A stretch of DNA of 64,000 nucleotides from Chiloscyllium plagiosum (lineage: Eukaryota). The notes beneath the pieces were generated by a model that worked only from the letters and a program-made list of their open reading frames with translations, was not told the DNA's origin and made no database searches. A program made the position numbers and the translations under genes. Of the stretch, positions 5,890 to 62,440 are shown in pieces. The stretch spans positions 19,621,994-19,685,993 of the forward strand of contig NC_057751.1 of NCBI RefSeq assembly GCF_004010195.1, written 5' to 3'. Each line of letters opens with the position of its first letter. The first letter of the stretch is position 1.

Positions 5890-6023
5890 CAGTTCTGAAA
5901 AAGCCGCACACTAGACTTGAAATGTTAACTGCTTCTTTCTGGATGCTGCCAGACCTGCTGACATTTCTCCAGCATTACATTTGTCTCAAGATTTCCAGGA
6001 CCTGCAGGATTTTGCTTTTTATT
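5890..6023 (+). mobile_element. Old Penelope-like fragment (related copies ~50290-50385, 54698-54762, ~49190-49278)
   Basis: ctgaaaaag...cttgaaatgttaac core remnant plus the gatgctgccagacctgctga...ccagca body shared with the other copies. Confidence 0.5.
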
Positions 6024-17792: not shown

Positions 17793-19484
17793 TTGTGCAG
17801 GACAGTGGTATACAATCGGGCGGGAGTTGCCCTGGAAGTCCTCAACATTGACTCCAGACCCCATGAGGTCTTATGGCTTAAGATTACACATGGGCAAGGA
17901 AACCTCCTGCTGGTTACCATGTACTGTCCTCCCTCTGCTGATGCATCAGTACTCCACCATGTTAAACAACTCTTGGAGGAAGCACAGAGGGTGGCAAGGG
18001 TGCAAGATGTACTCTGGGTGGGGGATTTCAATGTCCACCACCAAAAGTAGCTCAGCAGCAGCACTACCAATCAAGGTCCTAAAGGACAAAGCTGCTTGAC
18101 TGGGGTGGCAGCAGGTGGTGAGGGAACCAATGGGTGAAAAACATAACTTCACTCTACCTTGCTGATTTGCGAGCTGCAGATTCATCTGTCCATTACGGTA
18201 TCGGTAAGAGTGACCACTGCACAGTCCTTGTGAAGACCCGCCTACACATTGAGAATACCCTCCATTGTGTTTTGTGGCAGTATTACTGTGCTAAATGGGA
18301 CAGACTTTGAACAGATATAGCAACTCCAGACTAGGCATCAGCAGCAAAATTGTACTCCAGCACAATCTGCAAATCTTATGGTGTGACATGCCCCTCACTC
18401 AACCCTGGTCCAGTGGAGAGTGCAGGAGAGCATGTCTGAAGCCACACCTAAAAAATGAGGTGTAAACCTGTTGAAAATACTAAATAAGATGACTGCCATG
18501 CCAAACAGCCTAAGCAGCAAGTGATAAACAGAGCTAAGCGATCCCACAGCTAACGGATCAGAGCTAAGTTCTGCAGTCCTGCCATATCCAGCCATGGATT
18601 AATCAACTCACTGGAGAAGGCAGCTTCACAAATATCCCCATCCTCAATGATGGAAGGGCCCAAAACAACAGTGTAAAGATAAGGCTGAAGCATTCACATG
18701 GATGATCTATCGCTGCCTTGTTCAGTTGTCCCCAGTGATGGTAATACCATCAATGAATCCTCCACTATCAAGTCCTTGGGGTTACCATTGACCAGAATCT
18801 CATCCTGGACTTGCTACATCAGCAGTGTGGCTACAAGAGTAGGTCAAACACTTGGAATCCCTCAGCAAGTAACTTCCCTCCTGACTCCCCAAAGCCTGTC
18901 CATCATATACAAAGCGCAAGTTAGGAGTGTGATGGAATATTCCCTCCTTGTCTGGATGCTTGCATCTACAATGCTCAAGAAGTTTGACAGCATCCAGGAC
19001 AAAGCAGCCCGCTTGATTGGCACCTCATCCACAAACATCCACTCCCTCCACCACCGATATTCTGTACACCCTGCTGCTGCTACCTCCAAGATGCACTGCA
19101 GAGGTCAGCAAAGTCATCAAACAGAACCTTCCAAACCCAGGGCCACTTCCATCTGGAAGGACAAGGGCAGCCGATACATAGGAACGTCACCATCTGCGAG
19201 TTCCCCTACAAGCCACTCATCATCCTTGGAAATATATCATCATTCCTTCAGCGTAATATTTGGGGGGGGGTTGTGTGTTTCTTCAATTAGTTGCATAACT
19301 GTCCACCATCATTCATGATTGGATGTGGTAGGATCTGATCCTTCAATAAGCTAAAAAGAAACAAGGTTGTGTGTGAATCAACCAATACCATCTTTGTTCC
19401 ACTTCTCTCTAACCTGCCTTGTGGTGCTTTTATCTATTAAGCCATTGGGAAGGATTTAATGGTATAACATCTGGATTTTTAAAA

Positions 19485-19735: not shown

Positions 19736-20102
19736 GCTCACTCTTGATTCACTGTATGTTATAGCAAGAAATGGTTGAAGATACTGGAAAAGCTGTTCTA
19801 ATACAACTGCAATACTGAACTCTGCATTTCCAGGTATGTCCTTTTCCATTTAAAACAAAAACAGGAAAACTCCTATCTGACCAATCACCATCCATGAATT
19901 ATCAGCAAAGTGATGGTAGATGGTAGCAAAGTGTTGACTGTGCTATTGATTGGCATTTACTCAGCAGTGACCTACTGAAAGAAGTTCTGTTTGGGATTTG
20001 GTGTCACCTGATTACTGATCCCATTTGCAGTCTTGATCCAAACATGGACACAAGCTGAACTAAGAGTGACTGGCCTAGAGATCAAGGTGACATTTGATAG
20101 TG

Positions 20103-20256
20103 TCAAAGAGTGTGGCACTGGAAAAGCACAGCCAGTCAGGCAGGTTTCATCAGCCATTCCTGATGAAGAGCTTATTCTTGAAACATCAACTCTCCTGCTC
20201 CTTGGATGCTGCCTGACCCTGATCTCCAGCATCTGCAGTCCTCACCTTTTTCCTAG
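20103..20256 (+). mobile_element. Penelope-like mini-element, partial fold-back, degenerate hammerhead
   Basis: ctgatgaagagcttattcttgaaacatc at 20160-20187. TSD catttgata at 20091 and 20257. Confidence 0.65.
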
Positions 20257-20884: not shown

Positions 20885-21070
20885 ACCCTTCCAACTATCA
20901 ACCGGATTCATTCCTCCCATCGACCAACCAGGTTGTACCCTCTACCTATTTTTACCTATCCCTAGCTCACCACCACCACCCCAGCCCTGAAGAAGGGTTA
21001 CACCCAAAACGGTGATGTCTCCACCTCTTGATGCTGCCTGACTTGCTGTGTTCTTCCAGCCTCCTGTTTG
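20885..21070 (+). mobile_element. Penelope-like 3' fragment with degenerate hammerhead
   Basis: ctgaagaagggttacacccaaaac (GAAA mutated to AAAA), followed by the gatgctgcctgacttgctgtgttcttccagc body. Confidence 0.55.
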
Positions 21071-22367
21071 ACACTGTCCAGCCAAGCAAATCTGTTTGAC
21101 ACCCTGTCCACCATCTTAAGTATTCACTTGATCCACGATGGACACAGTAACAGTGGTTTATACTATCTAGAAGTACTTTGATAACACTTTCCAAACCATG
21201 ACTGCAACCTAGAAAGACAAGGGCAACAGATGTATGAGAACACCACTGCTTGCAAATTCACCTCTGAGGCATATACCAGCTTGACTTTGCACTGTATCAC
21301 CTCGCTGTTCCTTCGTTGTTGCTTGGTCAAAACGCTGGAATTCCCTTCCTTATAATGCTCTGGGCGTAAGTTAACCACATGGAATGTAGTGGTTCAATAA
21401 TACGTCTCATCATCCCTCTCCATGATAAATAATTGAATCATCCTTGTCGGAACACACGACAGAAAATATTTTTTTAAAAATCTCAGCTGGAGTGACAGCA
21501 TGGTCTACAGCTTGTCTATTTTTCAACCAGGTGGTGTGCATGTGAGATATATCACTTATCCCAAATTTGTGAGAGAACAGCTCACCTTCACCTAATTTCC
21601 TATATTCAGATTCCAACCGCTGGAAAAGTATTAAGATAGTTCTGCTACAAGTGCCAGCTCCACCCATGATGTGCACAGATGAACATTGTTACTGTCTGTG
21701 CAGGAGAAAATAAAACTAAAGAAACAAGTTGATTTCAAATTTTGAATGTGAACCTGAAGTTTGTTTCACCTGCAAAAACTGTCTTTAGAGCTAGATTTTA
21801 GAGGATATAAGCTGCATTTGACTTGTTATACAGTCTCTACTGGACACATTAGATTAGTGAACACATTTGTCCTGATTCCTTCCTACCAGTTTGAGAGATT
21901 ACAGGAACAGCACTGGAATGTTGAGGTACACACTCAACATTGTAAAGAGAACAAGAGTACAGTCCCAATCACTTCCCTTCACTCTTTTATCAAATCAACA
22001 TGTTAACTTGGGTTTGCATTTTTTTTTAAAGCTGATTCTAAAGATTACTTGGTTAATATCAAAAGTAGCATTATACTTGAGATAGGAAAGTTTTATATAT
22101 CTGATCTCTAGATGGTGTGGAAGAGTTAATTGTCCATCACATATACTCGTTCATCCTTTTTCTTCATTTGTGAAAAATTGGTGGCAACAGATTAACTTAA
22201 GGCTGTATTCTAACCTTGTTCTGCTGGCAGTTATATTTTGAGCAGTCGCCATTTTCTGCAGTCCACATCTTTTCTGTAATGGGCCTTCAGCTCCCGATCC
22301 CAGTTTGCTTCTTGACCAGATATCTCTTAAAAAGAGGACTGAAAGGCAGTGTGCAGGTTAACCTCCT

Positions 22368-27837: not shown

Positions 27838-27938
27838 GTGAGAGAGCGTGGTGCTGAAAAAGCGCAGCAGGTTAGGCAGCATCCAAGGAGCAAGAAAGTT
27901 GATGTTTTGGGCAGGACCGTTCCTCAGGACTTTCTCCT
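27838..27938 (-). mobile_element. Penelope-like mini-element, degenerate hammerhead
   Basis: Exact 14-bp TSD actaccctgcagaa at 27824-27837 and 27939-27952. Body matches the 62031 family. Confidence 0.7.
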
Positions 27939-32602: not shown

Positions 32603-32763
32603 GAGATTTGAGATGGATCGTGACCCACAGGCTGCTCGATACTGTGCAGAGTGTAACAAGAGGCACTCTGTGGAGGATGGAGACTTCTGGGCAGAGTCAA
32701 GCATGCTGGGATTGAAAATCACTTACTTTGCCATGATGGATGGCAAAGTCTATGACATCACAG
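32603..32763 (+). CDS. DNAJC14: DNAJC14 coding exon 4 (Jiv90 domain)
   Basis: tttgcag|[53 protein letters not shown]|gtaagg; 161 nt. Confidence 0.95.
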
Positions 32764-34297
32764 GTAAGGAGATTGGAAATTGGACAACACACATCCTTCC
32801 CCCACCCCCAATACCTTCCTGTTAAATTTTAAAAAGAACACAGACTCAAAGATTTTAGTGAGACTTGTGCATAAAATATGAAGCTCAATGAAGAGTGCAG
32901 GAAGACATGCCAGGACCAGCAAGGGCATACCAGATCCAGCACCAGGCCTATCTAAAAATGCAATGCCAAATTGCTGAAGCTACAAAACAAGAGTACCTAA
33001 AAATGCAGTAATTCCACAAACAATTAATCAGATATAAGCTCTGCAGTTCTATGACATTCAGTCGTAAATGGTGGTGGACAATTAAACAACTGGAGGAGGA
33101 ACCTCCACAAACCTTCGCACCCTCAATAAAAGGGGTCCAGCACATAAGTGCAAAAGATAAGACCAAGGCATTTGCAACAATCTTCAGCCATCTGAGTGGA
33201 TAATCCATCTCTGCCTCCTTCTGAGGTACCCAGCATCACAGATGCCAGTCTTCAGCGAATTCGGTTCACTCCACATGATATCGAGAAATGGCTGGAGGCA
33301 CTGGATACTGCAAAGGCAATGGCCATGGACGATGTTCCAGCAAGAGTGCTAACATTGTGCACCAGACCTAACTGCACCCTTACCCAGCTTCAAGTACGGT
33401 TACAGCACTGGTATCTACATGACAATGTTGAAAATTGAGCAGAAATGTTCTGTATGCACAAAGCACGGCAGATCCAACTCGATACTTACTGCCCTATCAG
33501 TATACCCTCCATCACCAGTCAAGTGTTGGAAGATGTTATCAACAATGCTATTCAGAGACATGAGAAATAATTTACTCACTGGTGCTCACTTTGAGTTCCA
33601 CCACAACCACTCGGCTTCTGACCTCATCGTAGCTTTGGTTCAAACAAAAGAGCTCGCTTCCAGAGGTGAGGTGAGAGAGACTGCCCTTGACATTAAGACT
33701 GCATTTGATCTCGTGTGGCATTAAGGAACCCTAGGAAAACGAGTCAGTGGGAATCAGGGGAAAACACTGCTGTTTATAGACCTATCTGGTACAAAGAAGG
33801 GTGGCTGTGGTTGCTGGAGATCAGTCATCTCTGCAGGAGTTCCTCAGGGTAGCGTCGGAGGCCCAACCATCTTCAGCTGCTTCATTGGAAGTGGGGATGT
33901 TCACGGTGCAATGTTCAGAATATTCATAATTCCTCAGATACTGAAACAGCGCATGTTCAAATGCTGCAACACCTGAACAATATCCAGATTTGGGCTGATG
34001 TGTGGCAAGGACATTTCTGCCACACCAGGGAATGACCATCTCCAACAAGAGAGAATACAACCATTACCCCTTGAAATTCAATGGCATTGCCGTCACTGGA
34101 TCTCCCTATTATCAACATCCTGGGGGTTTACCATTTTCCAGAAACTAAACTGGGCTAGCCATGTAGATGCAGTGACGACAAGAGCAATTCAGGCTAGGAA
34201 TCATGCAGCGAGTAACTCTCCTTCTGACTACCCAAAGCCTGTCCACTATCTGCATGGCACAAGTTAGGAACGTGATGGAATGCTCCCCTCTTGTCTG

Positions 34298-34504
34298 AGG
34301 AGAAAGTGAGGTCTGCAGACGCTGGAGATCAAAGCTGAAACTTTATTGCTGGAACAGCACAGCAGGTCAGGCAGCATCTAGGGAACAGAAGATTCGACGT
34401 TTCGGGCACATGATTCCTGAAGAAGGGCATGTGCCCGAAACGTCGAATCTTCTGTTCCCTAGATGCTGCCTGACCTGCTGTGCTGTTCCAGCAATAAAGT
34501 TTCA
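34298..34504. mobile_element. Young fold-back Penelope-like mini-element
   Basis: Perfect 80-bp inverted repeat 34333-34412 / 34428-34507. 16-bp TSD gctcccctcttgtctg at 34282-34297 and 34505-34520. Confidence 0.8.
34412..34449 (+). ncRNA. Minimal type-I hammerhead ribozyme (Penelope-like element type), structurally complete
   Basis: GATTC-CTGAAGA-A-GGGC(ATGT)GCCC-GAAA-CGTC^-GAATC: 5-bp helix I, 4-bp helix II, palindromic ACGT helix III, GUC cleavage triplet. Confidence 0.75.
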
Positions 34505-34599
34505 GCTCCCCTCTTGTCTGGATGAGTGCAACTGTAACAACATTCAAGAAGCTTGACACCCATCCAGGACCAAGCCGTCTACTTGATTGATACCAGTAC

Positions 34600-35855
34600 T
34601 GATGTCCGTGAAATCATTGCCAATTGTCAGAAGAAACCATTTCGTTCACTAATGTCCTTTTGTGAAGGAAATCTGCCATCCTTATCTAGTTTGGCCCACA
34701 TGTGAACCTAAACCCACTGCAATGTAGTTGACTCTCAACTGCCCTCTGAAATGGCCAAGCAAGCTATTCAGTTGTACCAATCGTTACGGAGTCTCAAAGA
34801 AATGAAAACAGACTGATCACCTGGCATCGACCTAGGCACTGGAAAGTACAACCGCAGAAACAGCCCTGTCAACCCTGCAAAGTCCTTCCAACATCTGGGG
34901 TCCAGTGCCAACATTGGGAGAGCTGTCTTACAGACTAGCATAGCCTGACATGGTCTTACTCACAGAATCATACCTTACAGGCCATGTCCCAAACACCACC
35001 ATCACCGTCCCTGGATGTGTCCTGTCCCACCAACAGGACAGACCCAGCAGAGGTGGTGGCACAGTGGGAGGGAGTTGCCTGGGATCCTCAATATTGACTC
35101 TGGACCTCATGAATTCGCATGGCTTAAGGTTAAACATAGGCAAAGAAACCTGATTATCACCTACCGTCTTCTCTCAGCAGATGAATTGGTACTCCTCCAC
35201 GTTGAACAACACTTTGAGGAAGCACTGAGGATGGGCAATGCACAGAACGTCCTCTGGGTGGGGGATTTCATCATCACCACCAAGAGTTGCTCGGCAATAG
35301 TACTACTGATCAAAGTGTTCGGGTCCTAAAGGACAAAAATGCGAGACTGGGGTCTGCAGCAGGTAGTAAGGGAACCAACAAGAGGGAGAAGCCTACTTGA
35401 CCTCATCCTTACCAATCTGCCAGGTGCAGACACATTCTGTCCATGACAGTATCGGGAAGAGCAACCACTGCACAGTCCTTGTGGAGACAAAATCCTGCCT
35501 GCACATTGAGAATAATCTCCATCATGTTGTGTGGCATTATCACTGTGCTAAATGGGACAAACTTCAAATAGATCTAGCAACTCAAGACTGGGCATCATTG
35601 AGGCACTACGGGCCATCAATAGCAGCAGAATTGTACTCCAGCAATCTGTAACCTCATGACTTGGCATATCCTCCGCTCAACCTTGACCATTAAGCCAGGG
35701 GATCAACTCTGGTTCAATGGAGAGTGCAGGAGGGCATGCCAGGAACAGTGGTTCAAAAGGTAGCCCACCACTACCTTCTCAAGGGTAACTAGGGATGGGC
35801 AATAAATGCTGGCCAGCAAGCAATGCCCACATCCCACAAATAAATAAAAGAAAAT
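34600..35855 (+). mobile_element. Internally deleted copy of the LINE: SINE-like body + APE + 3' tail
   Basis: Body 34600-34750; APE ORFs VLLTESYL..DRPSRGGG and VGDF; jumps at ~35747 straight to the 3' tail. Confidence 0.75.
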
Positions 35856-36252
35856 CACAAACATTCACTTCCTCTAGCATTGATGCTCAGTAACGCCAGT
35901 GTGTACTATCTACAAGATGCTTTTCAGAAATTCACCAAGGCTTCTTAAACAGCACATTTCCAAACACATGACCACTACTATCTAGACAGGGCAGCACATG
36001 TATAGGAGCACCGCTAACCTACAAGTATTTCTCCAAGCCGTGCACCATCCTGGCTTGGAAATATATCATTGTTCATTCAGTATCACTGGGTTAAATCTTG
36101 GAATTCCTTCCCTAATAGCATTGTGGATCTACCTACAGCATGTGGACTGTAGGAGCTCAAGAAGGCAGCTCACCACCACCTTCTCAAGGACAATAGGGAT
36201 GAGCAATAAATGTTGGCCCAACCACTAGCATCCACATCGCATGAATGATTTT
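35856..36252 (+). mobile_element. 3' end of the same LINE family
   Basis: caagaaggcagctcaccaccaccttctcaaggacaatagggatgagcaataaatg tail. Confidence 0.75.
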
Positions 36253-36728
36253 AGAACTGAAGTTTGGAGATAATTTGCTGTATAAAGTTTTCAGTTGTGG
36301 TAGCTTCAGCAGAATGGTGTTGTGTTCAAAAGGCAAGGATTTGTAACCTGACCTGGAGCACTATTTGCAAAGCATAAACACGAACATAAATCAGTTGCGT
36401 CAAGCAGCCTGTTTCTGTGATCTAAAACGCTTAATGCAACATGAAAATGTGTTATTTGGCTTGATTATTGGGTGGTAAATGTCAATATGGTGGCAAATAA
36501 ATATCAATTCTCTTGAGTTTTAGTAGCAACAAAATGTCAAGACTAAAACCTGCGGAAGTGAGATACTGAGATAGTGAAGTTGCTAGTCTCTGAATAAACA
36601 CTGACTCACTAGTAAATTAGCAGGAATGTAAATTAGATTAAATATACTTCATAACAACTGTTTGTTACTGTTCTTACCATCTCAAATTCATCAGTTGGTC
36701 TCATCGTTCCAACAATTCCAATTCAATA

Positions 36729-37260
36729 GGGAAGGCGATCACCCAGTGGTATTGCATTAGACTGTTAATCTGAAGAGGAGAAAGTGAGGACTGCAGATGC
36801 TGGAGAGTCAGAGTCAAAAAGCATGTGGCTAGAAAAGCACAGCAGGTCAGGCAGCATCCAAGGAGCAGGAAAATCAATGTTTCGGGCATAAGCCCTTCAT
36901 CAGTTTCCTGATAGAACGGCTTATGCCCGAAACTTCGACTCTCCTGCTCCTTGGGATGCTGCCTGACCTGTGCTTTTCCAGCACTCTGCTTTTCAACTAT
37001 TAATCTAGAGACCCAGGTTCACATCCTGCCATAGCAGATGGTGAAATTTGAATTCAATGTAAAAGAAAAACATCTGAAATTTAGAGTATAATGGTGACCA
37101 TGAAACTGTTGTTGATTTGTTTTTGTTTTCCAGCTAATTTACTTCACTAATGTTCTTCAGGGGAAGAAACTGCCATCCTTACCTGGTCTAGCCTACATGT
37201 GACACTCACCACAGCAATGTGGTTAACTCCACAACTGCCCTCTGAATGAATTAAAAATAA
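36729..37260 (+). mobile_element. tRNA-derived SINE sharing its 5' region and 3' tail with the LINE at 15288 (other copies 9463-10865 +, 145-450 -)
   Basis: gaaggcgatcacccagtggtatt (A box), ggttcacatcc (B box), body gaaatttgaattcaat..cagcaatgtggttaactcc..ctgccctctg. Confidence 0.75.
36776..36995. mobile_element. Fold-back Penelope-like mini-element with two decayed, divergent hammerhead cores
   Basis: Minus core CTGATGAAGGGCTTATGCCCGAAA (36880-36903), plus-strand core from 36908. Imperfect TSD act(g/a)ttaatct at 36761 and 36996. Confidence 0.75.
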
Positions 37261-38129
37261 TGCAACTGCAATTATTTTCCATGTGCCTTACAGTATCTCT
37301 TGATTCAGGTTCATTTCACATGGACCTAATATTTAACTAGCATGAACATTTTTTTCAAAGTTGTTATCCCTTGTAAGCCATTACTGACCTTTTGGAATTC
37401 TTCTACAATCTCCTAGAGCATCATTCTGGAATATCCAATTAAAATCTTATTCCAGAAATACTTTAAAAGCCTGTCTTCAGCAATGAACACTGTACTAAAA
37501 GAAAAATACGAGAAGTCAACTATGATTTTCAAATCCTAAGGTTGAAAAGCCTTTGAAATCACCTTTTTGGTTTTTGAGAGAATTGGGAGATGACGCCTGT
37601 GTTTGGCACATGTTGATTTCTTGGTTGGTTCTGATGTAAAATGGTAACTTGGTGTTTTTCAATATGGAGGGAGGAATAGGAGGAGATCATTCGCATAACT
37701 TGAGGCTGTTATACAGGAGTAGGAGAAGGCCATTCAGCCCCTCAGATCTGTTCTGTCTTTCAATCTGATCATGACAGACCTATACCTCAAGTCCAATTAC
37801 CTGTTCAGCTCTATGACTCTTAATACCCTCCTCCAAAACAAATATCAGTTTGAAATTCACTCGTGCCCTTTCCAGTGGATTATTGGGAGTCAATTGGTTA
37901 AAAACTAGGGAGTGGGGTCATTGTCGAATTCGTACTCCGACTGCGCAGTACTGAATAGGACCCAAGAGCAAACATAGAAAGCATCTGGATTTCTCTGCAT
38001 TGTTTATTCTAGCCTGAGAGAAATTCCACAGACATGTCTCTGTTGCGTTAGAAAAATTATGAGAGATTAATAATTCATATAGAAGTTAAGTAACTCGCTG
38101 TTTGTTTTGTTTATCCCTTCTCTCTTCAG

Positions 38130-38232
38130 AGTGGGCTGGGTGTCAGAGGGTTGGAATATCTCCTGATATACATAATGTTCCTTACCATATATCCTTTGCT
38201 ACACGAACTTCTGGAAACAGTGGTAGACATAG
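38130..38232 (+). CDS. DNAJC14: DNAJC14 coding exon 5
   Basis: tcttcag|(E)[33 protein letters not shown](R)|gtaagt; 103 nt. Confidence 0.95.
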
Positions 38233-42309: not shown

Positions 42310-43555
42310 GTGAACAACTGGGCCATCAAGCAGCACCTGTTCAGCAATAATCTGCTCACTGATGCCAGGTTTAGGTTCCATCAGGGCCACTCAGCTCCTG
42401 ACTTTATTTGCAGCCTTTGTTCAAATAGGGACAAAAGAGCTGAATTCCAGAGGGAAAGTGAAAGTGACAGCAAGGCTGCATTTGACTGTGTGTGGCATCA
42501 AGGAGCCAAGCAAAACTTGAATTCACTGGGAATCAGGGAAAACTCTGCATTGTTTGGAATCATATCTGGCACAAGGGAAAGTGGCTGTGATTTTTAGAGA
42601 TCAGTCATCTCCACTCTAGGGCATCTCTGCAGGAGTTTCTCAGTCATGTCCTAGGTCAACCTCATTAGCATTATTTAGTGATATTCCCTTTCTGATAAAG
42701 TCAGAAGTGGGAATGTTCGCTGATAATTGCACAATGTTCAGCACCATTCGTGACTCCTCAGATACTGAGGCAGTCCATTTCCAAATGCGTCAAGACCTGG
42801 ACAATATGTAGGCTTGGGCCGACAAGGAGAAAGTAATATTCATGCCATGCACACGTCAAGGAATGACCATCTCCAACAAGAGGGAATTTAACAATTACCC
42901 TTTGACATTCAGTGGCATTACCATCAGTGAATCCCCTGTTATCAACATCTTGGGATTACCATTGACCAGAAACTCAACTGGACTAACCATATAAATAGTG
43001 GCCTCAATAGAAAATCAGAGGCTAGGAATACTGCAATGTATAAGCCACCTCCTGATTCTACGAAGCCTATCTACCATCTACAAGAAATAAGTCAGGAGTG
43101 TGATGGAATGCTCCCCACTTGCCTAGATGGGTACAGCTTCATCAACATCCAAGACAAAGCACCACATCCACAAACATACGCTCCCTCCAACACCAACATT
43201 CAATAGCAGCAGCATTGTGTACCATCTACAAGATCTACTACAGAAATTCACCAAACATCCTTGGCAATTGTAGGTTTGGATGGTACTGTTGATCATCTAG
43301 AAGGCCATGGGCAGCAGATACATGGGAACCCTACCACCTCCAAGTTTCAAACAGTGCCATTCCTTCAGTGTTGCTGGGTCAAAATCCTGGAACTCTTGAA
43401 TAACTTTGTGAGTCTACTTCTGGGTATACAGACTGCAAAGGTTCAAGAAGGCAGCTGACCATCATCATCATCACCTCAAGAGCAACTAGGGATGGGCAAT
43501 AAATGCTAGCCTGGCCAGTGGATGCCCATGTCTCATGAGTGAGATGAAAGAAAAA
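42310..43555 (+). mobile_element. RT-3' fragment of the same LINE family nested in an old CR1
   Basis: atgttcgctgataattgc (MFADNC, RT catalytic motif) at ~42713; 3' tail at 43480-43555. Confidence 0.8.
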
Positions 43556-46688: not shown

Positions 46689-49600
46689 AGTCCTCTTTTA
46701 TTGAATTGTATGAATACATTTGGACTGTACCTTTTTAACATTTTAATTTGAATGTACAATAGCAACTAAGGTGATCTTGAGAACTTTACTTTTTAACTTG
46801 AATTAAATAGTAAAGAATTAATTTCTGGTTTCAACAAAATGAATATAACCCAATAGGTGACTTTTTAAAATGCTTTATTCACTCCAATGTTATGATTTTT
46901 TTCTTTGGGGGTGGGGGGGGGGGGCAGCAGTGGTTCTGGTGGTCTTACCTCCTGAGTTCATAAGTTCTCCTAATCATTTTTAATGGGGAAAACTCTGTAT
47001 TGCAGAAAAAATAGAGTAAAACGGTATGTTTGTCTGATGGCCTAATTTCCACCAGAAGACAGAGCACATTTACAAACAAAGGAAGAAACCAGAAAATAAT
47101 TTAAGTGTAAAATTGAGCACATTTATTGTGGTTTGGGAGATCAGATACAATTTCTTTTGTAACTTTAAAAAATTAAAATTTACTGGAAATCATACACAAT
47201 CTTCTAAACAGAAAATAAGAACCTTTGGTTAATAACTACCATAAAAAGTAAGATTGACTTGTGCTCCTTTTTAGTCCTTTAATGTCTTGCATTTCATTCT
47301 CTTCTCTCACTCCCGTTCTTTCTGTGTACCTCAATCTTCTACAATGATGATAATGTCTTACACAGTAATGAAACACATACCGATCAGTAACAAGAGTAAT
47401 ATATTTTATGGATGTGTGCAGAAATCTTAATATGACTGGAACACCATGAGTATGAAATGCTTTGCAACACAAGCTTTAATTCAACCCACTAATACAAAGT
47501 AACCGTAGCATCATCTGTGTTCACAGCTCCATGGCTGGGACTGACAAGAGGACATTTGAGTAATCAGCACTGTAAACCTTTATCAGTACTTGAAAATTTA
47601 ACCAGCTTTTTCTGGGAATCAAGCCAAAAATTCTCCAATTAATAGTAATGGAGTTCAAAGTTTGTTATATGTTATAAAAATGCCCACCTAGAAAATGATT
47701 TTTGTTTAGCCATCAAAATCTATATACCACGTATAAGATTTCCTATCAGTTCCCAGTCAGTAGAACATTTGATTTAAACAAATGCTTACTGTTTACCTTT
47801 CTGGCACTGCACAGACTAGGGACAAGACTGAGATTGAACAAGAGAATACAGGTAGCCTACGAGAGCAGGTGTATGTTCCATAGAGTGAGCTACAGTCCTG
47901 CTTTCTACATATTCGATCTGTGTTGTGAATTTTCAAGTTTTATCTGTACAGTATGCCTGTGATGCTAAATTACCACCTTGTGATCATTGACCAATCTGGT
48001 GAACGAGGATCTCTGCATTGGAGCCAGTTGATTGTATATCTGAACATCCTGAGTTTCAAAAGGTGGTCTCAGTCAGTATCTCAAACACTCCATTCAAATT
48101 ACAGAAACCCCATTTAACATAAAGTTAAACTTGGAGAGTTGTACTTGTAGGAGGCATGTGCTTTAGTATCGTCATGGTTATAGTCACACATTATTTAGAA
48201 TCTTTGATAGGTGCAGTTTCAGTGCCGTGGGCAAAGCAGAATCCATGGTGGAAGAAGTAGAATACGTTGGTGGGAGTGGAGCTATGGGACAGCATTGTGA
48301 GAATCTTTGAAGAGGAATGATTTGAGAGAAGGTGCTAATTGGAGGGGTTTAGGGAAATTTAATAGCATTGAAGGACATGGGCTTTTGTTGAATGGGAGAG
48401 GTACTCGTAAACATGGAGGTAAAGAGAAGGATGGTTAATGTAGAGCTGGGATGAAGAAAGGCTTAAGAAAGCAGAATAGTATACTTTGTAGTCCAGATGA
48501 GTTTGGGTGGGGGATTCTTAAAAAAACAGGTGGTAATTTGGTATGGTGGAGATCAGGGAGGGGACAGTCTTTGGAATTTGGGAAATGCACTTGAACAAGT
48601 GCATTGAAACAAAATAATTCAAACCTAATTATTAATCAGATAGTTCTTGCACACTGCTATAATTTTAAATTAAATGAAACAAATGCTAGTACAATAAAAT
48701 CTATTCAAACATTAGGAATAGACTTAATTGATGTTAACACAATATTAAATGCTTTAGCTAAAAATAAACAAAACTTTTACTATACACTTAGGTTTGAAAA
48801 GTAAAATTAACAACTTTAATGTTTTACACTGAAAATCTTTTACTCTATTTTTCTCTTTCACTTCTTCCTTTCTACAATCTATTTTGGAGGTGGGGACAAC
48901 ATTCTTTTGGCTGTAAACAGGTTACACAGGTATGTTGAACGTCAGCAGCTTGAAATCACATAACCTAAAAAGCGCAAAGCAATCTTAAAAGTGTTTCCTG
49001 ATAACAACTCGCTTCCCCCACCCCCAACATTTCTCAAGCACCTTAATGGTGCATGTACAAATCTGTGGCATTCCAAGAATAAAATGGTCTGTATATTGCC
49101 AAAGGCACATTTCACTGTGGTGTTGTCAGTTGTGGCAAAGAATTTAATGAAAGAATTATATTGGGAGTAATTTTATAAACATGTGCTAGGTCGACAACCT
49201 AAAGCATCAACTCTCATCCTCTCCATAAGTGCTGTCTGACACACTGTTTTCCTTCAGCATTTCTGTTTTTATTTCATCTTATGAAGTCTTAAATCACTCA
49301 TTTTGTTTCTGACCCTGAAAATTTTGACATAGGTTGCCCCTTTTAGATGAACTAAGATATTTAAGGTTGAACAGGTAATTTAAAATTGTTGACTTTTATG
49401 AAGATTGTTTGATGTAGAAGTTTGTAAGCAGTTATTCACAAGGTTCTGCTGACCATTACCTGTGAGTATTGTTGAAGTTAGAGCTAATTTTAAGGTGACA
49501 ATCGACAAATTTAAAGTTGTGTAATTTGGTGGGTTCACAGATTGGACCTTTGTTCATTTGATTTGAAAAGGCTGTAGATCCCAACACAAATCTTTTGTTG

Positions 49601-50551
49601 GCCAGAACCTTTTCAGGAGTGAAAATAAAATGCAGATTGCATTACCAAAGTGTAGTTTATTTTTGTAAAGGAGTGTACTTTTAAAAATGGTATTAAGAAT
49701 TTTGTATCTTTATATCTCAACTATACCTTACCTTCCATTCTTTTACAGTAAAGAACTCTCATTTATGTACCACCTTTTATGATCACAGGCTGTTCCAAAG
49801 GACTTTACAGCTATTAAATACTTTAAAGTGTAGCAACTGGTGTAATTTAGGAAAAACAGCAGCCAATTTACACATAGTAAGCTCCCACAAACAGCAGTTA
49901 TATAGATATTAATTGTTTGCCAGGAGGAACCTACGCTCTTCAAAAAATATCTCATGGCACTATTATAGCCATCTGGGAGGATATATGGGCTTTGGTTTAA
50001 TCTGGCAAACCAACAACTAGGTCATCAGTTATTTGATTAATACAGAAGAGACACAAAAAGTTGTTAAAGATACATGCCTTCTACGGTCATATATAATTTC
50101 CTACTGGACACCCTAACCATGCAGATGGTTAGTCTGTCAGTATTTCATTCCAGTTACATGCAATAAAGGTGGTGGGCTTGAGAAGTCATGCCAAAATGAA
50201 ATCCATTTTTCAAGGTTTGTACCCATCTCTGTTTAATAATCCTAAATGTAATAGGAGTTAAAATCCCAGCTGAAATGTGCCTTTCGTTCCAAAGTTGAAT
50301 CATATTGGAGTCGAAATGTTAACTCTGTCTCTCTCTCCACGGATGCTGCCAGATCTGCTGAGTTTCTCCAACACTTTCTGCATTCACAGTATTTAGCTGA
50401 AATGCACTTTCGGTTGCTTTTGAACTCGTAAAATATTTGCAGCACTTTGCATTTTATTTTCAAAATAGATTTGCCTCAAATTATTTTTGTGTTTTTGCTG
50501 AGTAAAATTTCAGATTTTGCCAAATTTTTGCACTGTGAATGTGTGCATGTT

Positions 50552-53931: not shown

Positions 53932-54975
53932 GAGTCATAGAGCAAGGAAACATACCCTTCGGTCCAACTGGTTCATGCCAACCAAGTTTCTAAAACTAAA
54001 CTAGTCCCATTTGCCTGAATTTGGGCCATATCCACCTGAAACGTCTGAAAATGAACCTTCAAGCTCAGCGAGCAAACCTACATCCAGAACCTCAACCTGA
54101 GCTACAAATCTTCTCAAAACACGCTTGGGCCATACCCCTCTAACCCTTTCCTTTTCATGTACCTATCTAAACGTCTTTTAAATGCTGTAACCGTACCTGT
54201 ATCTACCACTTCCTTTGGCAGTTCACTTACCATACGAACCACCCTGTGTGAAAAAGTTGCCCCTCAGGTCGCTTTTAAATCTTTCTCCTCTCACATCTCT
54301 GCCCTCCAGTTTTGAACTCCCTATCCTAGGGAAAAGACCTTTGCTATTCACCTTATCTATGCCCCTCATGATTTTATAAGCCTCTATAAAGGTCACCCCT
54401 AAACCTGCTACGCTCCACTGAAAGAAGTCCCAGCCTCTCCCTGTAACTCAAACCCTTCAGTTCTAGTAACATCCTTGTAAATCTTTTCTGCACTGTCTCC
54501 AATTTAATAATATTGTTTCTATAGAAGGTCCGCCAGAACTGTACACAGTACACCAAAAATGGCCTCACCAACATCCTGTACAACCGAAACATGACATCCC
54601 AACTCCTATACTCAAAAGTCTGAGCAATGAAGGCAAGTGTGCCAAACGTCTTCTTTACCACCATGTCAACCTGTGATGTAACTTTCAAGGAACCATGATT
54701 TCTCTACACAGATGCCACCAGACCTGCTGAGCTTTTCCAACAATTTCTATTTTTTGTTTCTAAACCCCTAGGCTTCTTACCAAAATACAACACCTCGCAT
54801 TTTATTTAAATTAAATTCCATCTACCATTCCTGGGCCCATTGGCCTAATTGATCAAGATCCCTTTATAATCCTACATAACCTTCTTCGCTATCTACTATA
54901 GCACCAATTTTGGTGTCATCTGCAAACTTACTTACTAACCATGCTTTCTATATTCTCATCCAAATTATTTATATA
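53932..54975 (-). mobile_element. CR1 3' fragment
   Basis: ORF LYRMLVRPFLVYCVQFW..LETVQKRFTRML; KFADDTK remnant ~54910-54930. Confidence 0.88.
54034..54124 (+). mobile_element. Penelope-like fragment inserted in a CR1 3' end
   Basis: TSD ttgggccata(t/c)cc at 54021 and 54125. Begins at the GAAACGTC half of the hammerhead. Confidence 0.65.
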
Positions 54976-56760: not shown

Positions 56761-56952
56761 ACACAAACTTGTATGTTCCACCAGGGATCACTGGACAGTG
56801 ATCAGGTGGAGCCCTAGCCACTTGCCACTCATCTGTAACTCAGAAGTGCTAAGGTTCAATTTTTACGCCACAACCGCAGTAGCACAGGATATTGACATCC
56901 CTTTAAAAGTACCCGCGTGAAGTTTTGCCCCCACCCATTCGCTGTGACTCAC

Positions 56953-57126
56953 CGAGTTATGGATGACATGAGTGAGGGTCCACACCACAGGAATGCTGAA
57001 GAATGGAATGCTCAGCAGGACGACGTGGAGAATTCCGACTAAAATGAGGTAGGCCAGCCAGATTCCCCGGCTGTTCATTATCCGGGTGTTTGGATTAACC
57101 TCACTGTGAGCGACACCAACATTCAT
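56953..57126 (-). CDS. ORMDL2: ORMDL2 first coding exon (sphingolipid biosynthesis regulator)
   Basis: [58 protein letters not shown]|GTGAGT; 174 nt. GIWLAY and FFSIPVVW, plus adjacency to DNAJC14, favour ORMDL2 over ORMDL1/3. Confidence 0.93.
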
Positions 57127-58329
57127 CCTGTCTCCTACTTTAAAGAAGGGGAAAGTTCAAAAAAGGAAAGTGGTCCTCATTCTCTGTCCTCCACTCAGCT
57201 GCTGGCATCTATCTGCACAATCGGGTAAAGCGAACCGATAAAGTTTATGCCAAAACAGAAACAGTAAAAGTCAAACATGCTTTTTCAATTATTGCGCAAT
57301 GGGTGAATTATGTTATCAGTCAGATTCTATCCAAAGCCAGTATCTGCATTATATCCAGAACTTCTACAATTTTTAGTGCAAAACTGACATACTTGAACAG
57401 CAGGTTGAATGTTTTGCTGATCTAACCTGTCAATTTGCTCACACAAAATTCCACTAACAGCAGTGAGGTTGAGGGTTGTTTTTTTGAGGGAGAAATGATG
57501 GCTCCAGGACACAAGGGAGAACTGTCCCCGCTCTTCTTCAAAATTGTGCCACCTGACAGGATGGACAGGAACCTCAGTTTAATGTTTCATCTGAAAGGCA
57601 GCACCTCTGACAGTGCAATGCTCCTCTCCCTGCACCATACCCCCAACTCCTACATCATGGGTCAGTGAGGAGAGGAGAAACCAAGGCTCTGGAGATACTT
57701 GAGCTTCACAAACGTGGCCTTGTGGTGGATCCCTGATTGCAACCACACTGAGGTGAGGAGATGCCAAAAGATTCAAATCTACGTCCAATGCAACATGAAC
57801 TTGGTAGTCTCATTCCAGACAATGCAAAACTGGATGAAATTCAGGATTCAGGATGAAATTGCCCAGCTGGTGCACTTGTGCTATTTGCGCATTTTGCCAG
57901 GTCTATTTTGCGCTATTGGCAGGGCTTCCCAGGTTTTCTACCATCTCATCATTTAAATGGGTCTTATACATCCTGCCATAATATGTCTCATGGTACAGCA
58001 AAAAAATAGTTGGTGCAACTTTTTGTCAAGGCGACAGTGTACATCCTATTGGCGACAAAGTTTGAAGCTGGACATTTTCCTGTTGTGGTCTGTGCTGCAG
58101 AAGATGGCTAACGTGAGGGGACAGGGAACAACAGGCTGTCAGGAAAACTGCAGGTGAAAGGCATGGATCCCACACAATTAACCTTATGTAAAGCTTACAT
58201 AAGTGCTTAGCTTCCAACTTTCTACCCAGTGCGAAAGAGAGAGAGACATCAAGCCCTTGTGGGGAAAGCCCAGCGTGGAGCAACTACAGGCCCATTGCTA
58301 AAGAAGGACTGTAATTGGAACTTTTAACT

Positions 58330-61854: not shown

Positions 61855-62440
61855 CGGCATTTCTATAGAACCTTTCATGATCTCAGAATATTCCAAATCA
61901 CTTTAAAATAAATGAAATGCGATTAAAATGTAATAATTGCTGTAATGTTTGCAAAATAAGCAGCCAATTTGTGCACAGCAACACCCCCCAGCCCCCACAC
62001 ACATCAATGTGATGAAGACTGATATGGGCCACTCCTGATGAAGGGCTTTTGCCCGAAACGTCGACTCTCCTGCTCCTCGGATGCTGCCTCACCTGCTGTG
62101 CTTTTCCAGCACCACACTCTTGACTCTAATCTCCAGCATCTGCAGTCCTCACTTTTGTCTAATGTTTTACTGATGTCACTTGAAGGATAAATATTGGCCA
62201 GGACACCAGGACAACTCCCTCGGGCTGCTTTGAAAAATGTGTCATGGGATCATTACATCTACCCAATGGGGAGAAGGGGCCTCCTTTCACCATCTCATTG
62301 GAAGGACGCCATCCTTGACAATGTGGCATGCCCTCAGCACTGATCCTCTGATAGTGCCTATTCCCTCAGTGCTGACCCTCCAACAGTGCCTACTCCCTCA
62401 GCACTGAACCCACAGCCTCCTGACCCCAAGGCGAGAGTTT
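61855..62440 (-). mobile_element. Deu-domain SINE with an internal ~29-bp tandem expansion
   Basis: gcagccaatttgtgcacagca Deu motif; ccctcagcactga-containing units at 62310-62408. Confidence 0.7.
62031..62161 (+). mobile_element. Penelope-like mini-element with intact hammerhead core (62035-62062)
   Basis: CTGATGA-A-GGGC(TTTT)GCCC-GAAA-CGTC, then the family body ending ctccagcatctgcagtcctcactttt. Interrupts a Deu-SINE. Confidence 0.75.

Follow-up and report, generated by a model that had tools for sequence, protein, structure and literature searches.

A hairpin-shaped, hammerhead-bearing insertion in an intron of a DNAJC14-like gene, probably a Penelope-like terminal repeat primed from both target strands

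The 64-kb stretch of DNA analysed here (the window) contains a DNAJC14-like gene on the + strand, recognised by a Pfam match to Jiv90 (E 3.9e-21), a domain that we take to be a marker of DNAJC14, on the exon at 32603-32763, and by a weak DnaJ match at the end of its large exon. The upstream exon ends at 32763 and the next DNAJC14 exon, also on the + strand, starts near 38130; the element that concerns us is therefore intronic, and its hammerhead motif lies on the sense strand. This is where the earlier note had placed it, and the Jiv90 and DnaJ matches and the + strand exons on both sides bear that out. The downstream neighbour of DNAJC14 is an ORMDL-family exon on the - strand (56866-57156, E 3.3e-11). 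Two features set the scene for the insertion:

32764-38129, + strand: DNAJC14 intron holding the element, delimited by exon motifs, a GT donor at 32764 and the Jiv90 match on the upstream exon; the 3' boundary is approximate.
33400-34640, + strand: decayed LINE-type retroelement, the target of the insertion, 68-79% similar to the copies located at 42343-43154 and 18738-19019.

Frames beside those two LINE copies match RVT_1 (E 0.0067) and Exo_endo_phos_2 (E 0.0002), and the own frames of the LINE at 33400-34640 have no Pfam match. In the paralogous stretches 18851-19019 and 42978-43154 both flanks of the insertion are present with a single copy of the 16-mer that brackets the element, and these paralogues thus show the empty state of the insertion site. 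Between two LINE pieces, another high-copy repeat starts near 34644 (34644-34790), with loose ends and a high summed depth.

The insert is 207 bp in total, hairpin-shaped and without any ORF. Along it, a target-site duplication (TSD) is followed by an antisense copy with a tail, a sense copy without one, and the second copy of the TSD:

34282-34297, + strand: left copy of the TSD, matching 34505-34520 at 16/16 positions.
34298-34332, - strand: 35-nt tail, present on the left (antisense) arm only; it matches the tails of the copies at 36776, 20220-20254 and 62155, and 34298 is the fixed 3' end of the family.
34333-34412, - strand: paired part of the left arm, an antisense copy of the element end that is cut off in the helix II region; there is no CUGANGA on the - strand.
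34413-34507, + strand: right arm, sense and tail-less, beginning at the 5' strand of helix I; its last three nucleotides (GCT) are also the first three of the TSD.
34505-34520, + strand: right copy of the TSD; the match of an organism B contig ends at precisely 34505.

Separated by a 15-nt spacer, the arms at 34333-34412 and 34428-34507 pair at 80 of 80 positions, and the predicted hairpin, a perfect 80-bp duplex, has a z-score of -22.6. Both the perfect 80-bp fold-back and the 16-bp TSD had been claimed beforehand, and both are exact. The extent of the fold-back had been understated, however: the left arm is 115 nt in full, reaching past 34333 to 34298 through the tail that the right arm lacks. 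A MITE or other DNA transposon was rejected as a candidate, given the 35 extra nucleotides of the left arm and the existence of solo, single-arm copies. The right arm also contains an AATAAA (34493-34498, on the DNAJC14 sense strand), which is predicted to be fully paired in the hairpin and whose surrounding letters are typical of the young subfamily.

The motif that drew attention to the locus straddles the junction of the two arms:

34412-34449, + strand: predicted minimal type-I hammerhead, with the core CUGAAGA at 34417-34423, an extra A at 34424, helix II at 34425-34436, GAAA at 34437-34440 and ACGU at 34440-34443.

Cleavage is predicted after C34444, where the triplet GUC ends. Helix II is GGGC/GCCC with an AUGU loop, helix I is GAUUC/GAAUC, and the palindromic ACGU takes the place of helix III. 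The features that mark a minimal hammerhead (min-HHR) are present, namely the ordered CUGANGA, GAAA and UH, the extra nucleotide that separates position 9 from 10.1, and the G10.1-C11.1 pair; folded alone in silico, 34412-34449 forms helices I and II, in agreement with the earlier claim of a complete core. A strict descriptor (core plus 4-bp helices I and II), a search that the earlier note had proposed, matches this one place in the 64-kb window and nothing in 200 simulated windows of the same length; a chance motif was rejected. Rfam gives no match in the window at its gathering threshold; at E values up to 10 there are nine, all of the generic hairpin kind and none to a hammerhead family. 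A microRNA precursor was rejected as well, the best Rfam score being 47.8 bits against a gathering score of 57.3, with 86 nt unaligned. A non-LTR retrozyme was rejected because there is one motif, no core on the - strand and no direct repeat of the unit within 33000-36000.

The perfect 5-bp helix I described previously is there as five pairs, but the fifth uses G34412, which is the last base of the inverted arm. Since this base belongs to that arm, and since most reads of the family stop at 34413, where the consensus of the loose ends has C as its final letter (agreement 0.46-0.6), helix I of the family is likely to be 4 bp long. Without G34412 the computed probability of the hammerhead fold falls to 0.054. 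Helix I is made perfect by A34447, whereas T34447 is a mismatch; T accounts for 37% of the depth in run X2 of organism A and for 99% in run X10 of organism B. From these letters, the subfamily that is expanding seems to have the better-paired helix. In a comparison for covariation across eight window copies, most of them decayed, helix II is 90% paired and helix I 62.5%, with two-sided changes in three of nine pairs; shuffles reached the observed values in 11-43 of 500 trials (23/500 for two-sided changes). The copy at 20983, misregistered in this alignment, has GGGT/ACCC as its helix II, with both members of the loop-closing pair changed.

The insert belongs to a family. A profile built from eight pieces of the window finds 14 matches at 11 loci in 64 kb. 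Copies of the family include:

36776-36998, no strand assigned: older fold-back copy, with a tailed antisense arm and a tail-less sense arm; arm identity 77/94, a decayed TSD of ~14 bp, cores broken.
20101-20254, no strand assigned: older fold-back copy with the same tailed and tail-less layout from the other strand; 13-bp TSD with one mismatch.
27838-27938, no strand assigned: older copy; its antisense arm is full and has no tail, and the sense side consists of ~9 nt from the end of the tail; TSD 14/14.
62033-62155: solo sense copy with core and ACGU intact, no inverted arm, a helix I of two contiguous pairs and no clear TSD.

More divergent relatives (20983-21074, 5913-5981, 50311-50375, 49196-49266 and 54706-54744) probably represent other or older subfamilies. 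In all four two-ended loci, that is, the insert itself (34298-34520) and the copies at 36776-36998, 20101-20254 and 27838-27938, the tail or its last bases occur on exactly one side, and the TSDs measure 13-16 bp. The tail-less ends of five copies (the insert at 34507, and 36998, 20101, 27838 and 50553) fall within ~2 nt of one position when aligned by eye. In public sequencing data, loose ends of the family pile up in each of four runs at 34298, beyond which flanks are unlike one another (agreement 0.34-0.49), and 5' ends pile up at 34413, so that these two positions are the usual 3' and 5' ends of the family. Part of the family runs on upstream of 34413 with a common sequence (agreement 0.46-0.6), which offers a lead towards parent elements of greater length. 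In run X2, contig depth summed over the element comes to 0.7-3.0 million, against ~4 for the contig of the locus; this is not in itself a copy number, but it points roughly to a family of the order of 1e5 copies.

By comparison with its relatives the insertion looks young, as had been claimed: neither the arms (80/80) nor the TSD (16/16) contain a mismatch and seven CpG are kept, while the arms of the 36776 copy agree at only 77 of 94 positions. Letters typical of the 34298-34520 copy are rarer in organism B by ~1,000-fold at two of four positions and by 40- to 200-fold at the other two; in rough, depth-normalised terms, B against A stands at 39-50 against 60,000-200,000 at 34341 and 34447, and at ~700-900 against 29,000-171,000 at 34332 and 34335. 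One contig end from organism B aligns to 34505-34682 and leaves 18 further letters unaligned, the joint itself not appearing among the matches listed. The site is probably empty in organism B, which would make the insertion absent from a related species. Within organism A, contigs of two samples extend over the left junction, one by 24 letters without a difference and the other by 22 letters with one; both overlaps are below our 31-letter rule, and one of these samples comes from the same study as the best-matching sample. An assembly artefact was rejected on the strength of this junction being present in contigs of two other samples. Presence/absence polymorphism was not seen within organism A in either of two DNA runs.

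The arrangement of the insert has analogues in other retroelements. In LINE-1 twin priming, both target overhangs prime reverse transcription and an inversion within the TSD results. The present insert is similar in that both overhangs would have primed, and different in that LINE-1 copies two adjacent segments, whereas here the same stretch of RNA is copied twice with near-complete overlap. A closer analogy comes from Penelope-like elements (PLEs). According to the available text of Craig et al. 2021 (PMC8557442), PLE insertions typically include an inverted copy truncated at its 5' end and, on one side, a tail of 30-40 bp; inverted insertions are described there as still mechanistically undefined. 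Among the features of the EN+ PLE insertion unit, as far as the accessible accounts describe it, an inverted, 5'-truncated head-to-head copy, a tail on one end (35 nt here), a TSD (16/16) and a hammerhead in the repeat are all found at this locus, so that the earlier suggestion of a Penelope-type minimal hammerhead with an inverted truncated copy agrees with the published layout. The insert is unlike that unit in that it has no ORF, is 207 bp as a whole, and carries a TSD of 16 bp rather than the 8-10 bp seen in a rotifer. No link to a PLE ORF with RT and GIY-YIG domains came out of the window: Pfam returned no GIY-YIG match in 135 of its 140 frames of at least 75 aa. Pattern scans of metagenome, viral and prokaryote genome collections gave no matches, as expected for an animal repeat.

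A mechanistic precedent is provided by PAc, a Poseidon element of Anolis, whose protein, in vitro, nicks and extends both target strands from two start sites, one at each boundary of the tail (Frangieh et al. 2024, PMC11167929). PAc resembles the present element in the two end positions bounding the tail, in the priming of both strands, as proposed here, and in having its hammerhead upstream of the tail. Its start sites lie ~90 nt past the cut site and its target is AT-rich, where ours would lie ~60 and 95 nt past and the TSD is GC-rich; the same study did not reconstitute the inverted product (PMC11167929). Two published start sites on two target strands would explain why the tail is found on one arm only, and we consider it quite probable that the locus records a recent, non-coding insertion of a hammerhead-bearing PLE terminal repeat in which both nicked strands primed reverse transcription, the blocking hairpin being incidental to that geometry. 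No paper on twin priming in Penelope-like elements was found by title in the open-access literature.

The sequence of events that we envisage has four steps. An element protein, made in trans, would nick the two target strands 16 nt apart. The 3' end of the top strand would then prime where the RNA's tail ends, its extension giving the antisense left arm, 115 nt long, stopping in helix II. The bottom-strand end would prime 35 nt further in, aided by the 3-nt match GCT, giving the tail-less right arm, the copying of which would reach the 5' edge of the hammerhead. Finally the two cDNA ends would be joined head to head. The 3-nt match is itself a counterpoint to this scheme, since the initiation sites of PAc have no homology to the cut DNA (PMC11167929).

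The inverted arm might instead come from snap-back self-priming, or from template switching at the palindromic helix II, with no part played by a second target strand. Self-priming has been proposed for head-to-head PLE junctions with palindromes, in the available portion of a study describing inverted pLTRs that come with a tail of 31 bp and TSDs of 9-10 bp (Arkhipova et al. 2013, PMC3846280), and two observations here suit it: the end of the left arm falls within helix II, where the sequence is self-complementary, and the two arms do not differ, which a single template would predict. We regard this origin as unlikely because of how the ends are placed. In 4/4 two-ended copies the outer ends adjoin the TSD at both family-typical positions, one with the tail and one without; the 15-nt spacer at the junction has the usual 5' end of the family as its 5' edge; and the copy at 27838, with only ~9 nt in its tail-side arm, is more simply read as a second priming that aborted, which is what it looks like.

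The hammerhead, for its part, resembles the min-HHRs of metazoan PLEs as defined by Cervera and de la Pena 2014 (PMC4209133). In the available text of that study these share with ours a full core, the extra nucleotide between 9 and 10.1, G10.1-C11.1, a short helix I and a palindromic 15.2-16.2; most are single dispersed motifs, and pairs on opposite strands 100-700 bp apart are noted. The 4-bp helix II seen here differs from the 7-8 bp of the schistosome motifs (PMC4209133). The accessible part of the study does not mention cartilaginous fish (PMC4209133), and our search of the open-access literature found no account of this hammerhead family in sharks. Animal non-LTR retrozymes are likewise non-coding, contain type-I hammerheads and are thought to be PLE-derived; as described in the portions available, they consist of direct tandem repeats that release circles, whereas the present insert has a single motif in an inverted arrangement (PMC7229834; bioRxiv 10.64898/2026.07.22.740005).

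Because a head-to-head insertion presents the antisense arm first on either strand, the hammerhead is preceded in the transcript by its own complement. Folding computations bear out the earlier proposal that the 3' half of the motif is sequestered by the upstream arm: the hammerhead fold has a probability of 0.67 if the arm is left out and of 1.6e-27 if it is included. Pairing with the arm reaches 0.999 by position 34434, when helix II is still incomplete, and 7-8 nt of arm are enough to block the fold, such that the segment 34405-34460, which holds 8 nt of arm, is itself locked in silico (P 0.006). CUGAAGA is left in the 15-nt hairpin loop, as had been proposed, but is not wholly free, C34417 and U34418 being predicted to pair.

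It is tempting to see a protective lock in this: the hammerhead, as a monomer or in trans with family transcripts, would cut DNAJC14 pre-mRNA, and the insertion would have been tolerated since the arm blocks it. In the folding computations the block sets in early, is strong and needs little of the arm; the expanded subfamily of organism A has A34447 and with it the perfect helix I, organism B being nearly all T; tandem retrozymes are reported, in the available text, to be under-represented in Xenopus introns (bioRxiv 10.64898/2026.07.22.740005); and, of the eight copies examined, 34412-34449 alone combines an undamaged core and palindrome with a complete helix I. Nevertheless we think this reading very improbable, and the claim that the lock protects the host transcript is not supported. 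With just 2 nt between A15.1 and U16.1, a lone motif is unable to close helix III. In the accessible part of PMC4209133, a schistosome min-HHR was not cleaved as a single motif and cleaved little as dimers, and the PAc hammerhead cleaves only with the element protein, being dispensable for insertion in vitro (PMC11167929). A partner is also lacking: core and ACGU palindrome are kept together in 2/8 copies examined, 34412-34449 and the copy at 62033, and the latter, with a helix I of 2 bp, is outside the coding span of DNAJC14, so that no intact partner lies within the gene. Two free 38-mers favour a duplex lacking helix III (-32.2 kcal/mol) over two monomers (-21.4) or a double hammerhead (-20.3), in a model that leaves tertiary contacts and Mg2+ outside. 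A lone motif unable to form helix III, published single motifs that are not cut and the lack of an intact partner within DNAJC14 together leave the host transcript with probably little need of protection. Geometry alone locks every head-to-head copy, and the lock needs no selection to explain it. The blocking hairpin is thus likely to be a by-product of how the element inserted and not a host safety catch.

Transcript data are thin at this locus. They come from a poly(A) single-cell library (run X21), of which about 2% of reads were examined; 931 reads aligned, 42 of them at >=99%, and 97% continue into unlike sequence, nearly all being from other copies. Depth beside the element is 0-2, too sparse to inform on editing or cleavage here. 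Family-wide, reads cross the cut site without a pile-up of ends, which speaks against cleavage and hence against a protective lock, weakly for a library of this type.

The hairpin could also have gained a host RNA role, as an edited or diced dsRNA or as a cover for the sense-strand AAUAAA at 34493-34498. A perfect 80-bp duplex is predicted, the AAUAAA is fully paired in it, and small RNAs from PLE copies have been reported in a rotifer in the available part of PMC3846280. Such a role is, in our judgement, very improbable: all four RNA A>G rows over the element are also present in DNA contigs, the Rfam miRNA matches are all below the gathering score and reflect any long hairpin, and the insert is young, probably lineage-specific, inside a dead LINE and one of a very large family. 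Our search of the open-access literature found nothing on antisense-locked intronic hammerheads with A-to-I editing.

Two-strand priming of a PLE terminal repeat thus remains our preferred explanation, and its expected consequences for the gene are modest. In DNAJC14 pre-mRNA the two arms would pair while transcription of the motif is still under way, and even with the arm taken away a single motif would show little or no activity. Splicing probably removes the insert, which is probably neutral. A single insertion matters little on its own; this one is real, cleanly preserved and of a known kind. The family, on the other hand, is large enough to test by counting whether intact intronic hammerheads are selected against and whether an inverted arm relieves that. 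In the boldest version, which we would give only a slim chance, helix I has become perfect again in the expanding subfamily, which is competent to cleave when two transcripts or the element protein meet, unlocked sense copies in introns are purged, and self-silencing fold-backs allow 1e5 copies to reside inside vertebrate genes. Although the evidence here does not favour it, relief of intronic selection by the inverted arm would, if true, amount to a self-silencing rule for genomic ribozymes. The locus itself supplies an undecayed 207-bp specimen of the product predicted for two-strand priming at the two PLE start sites.
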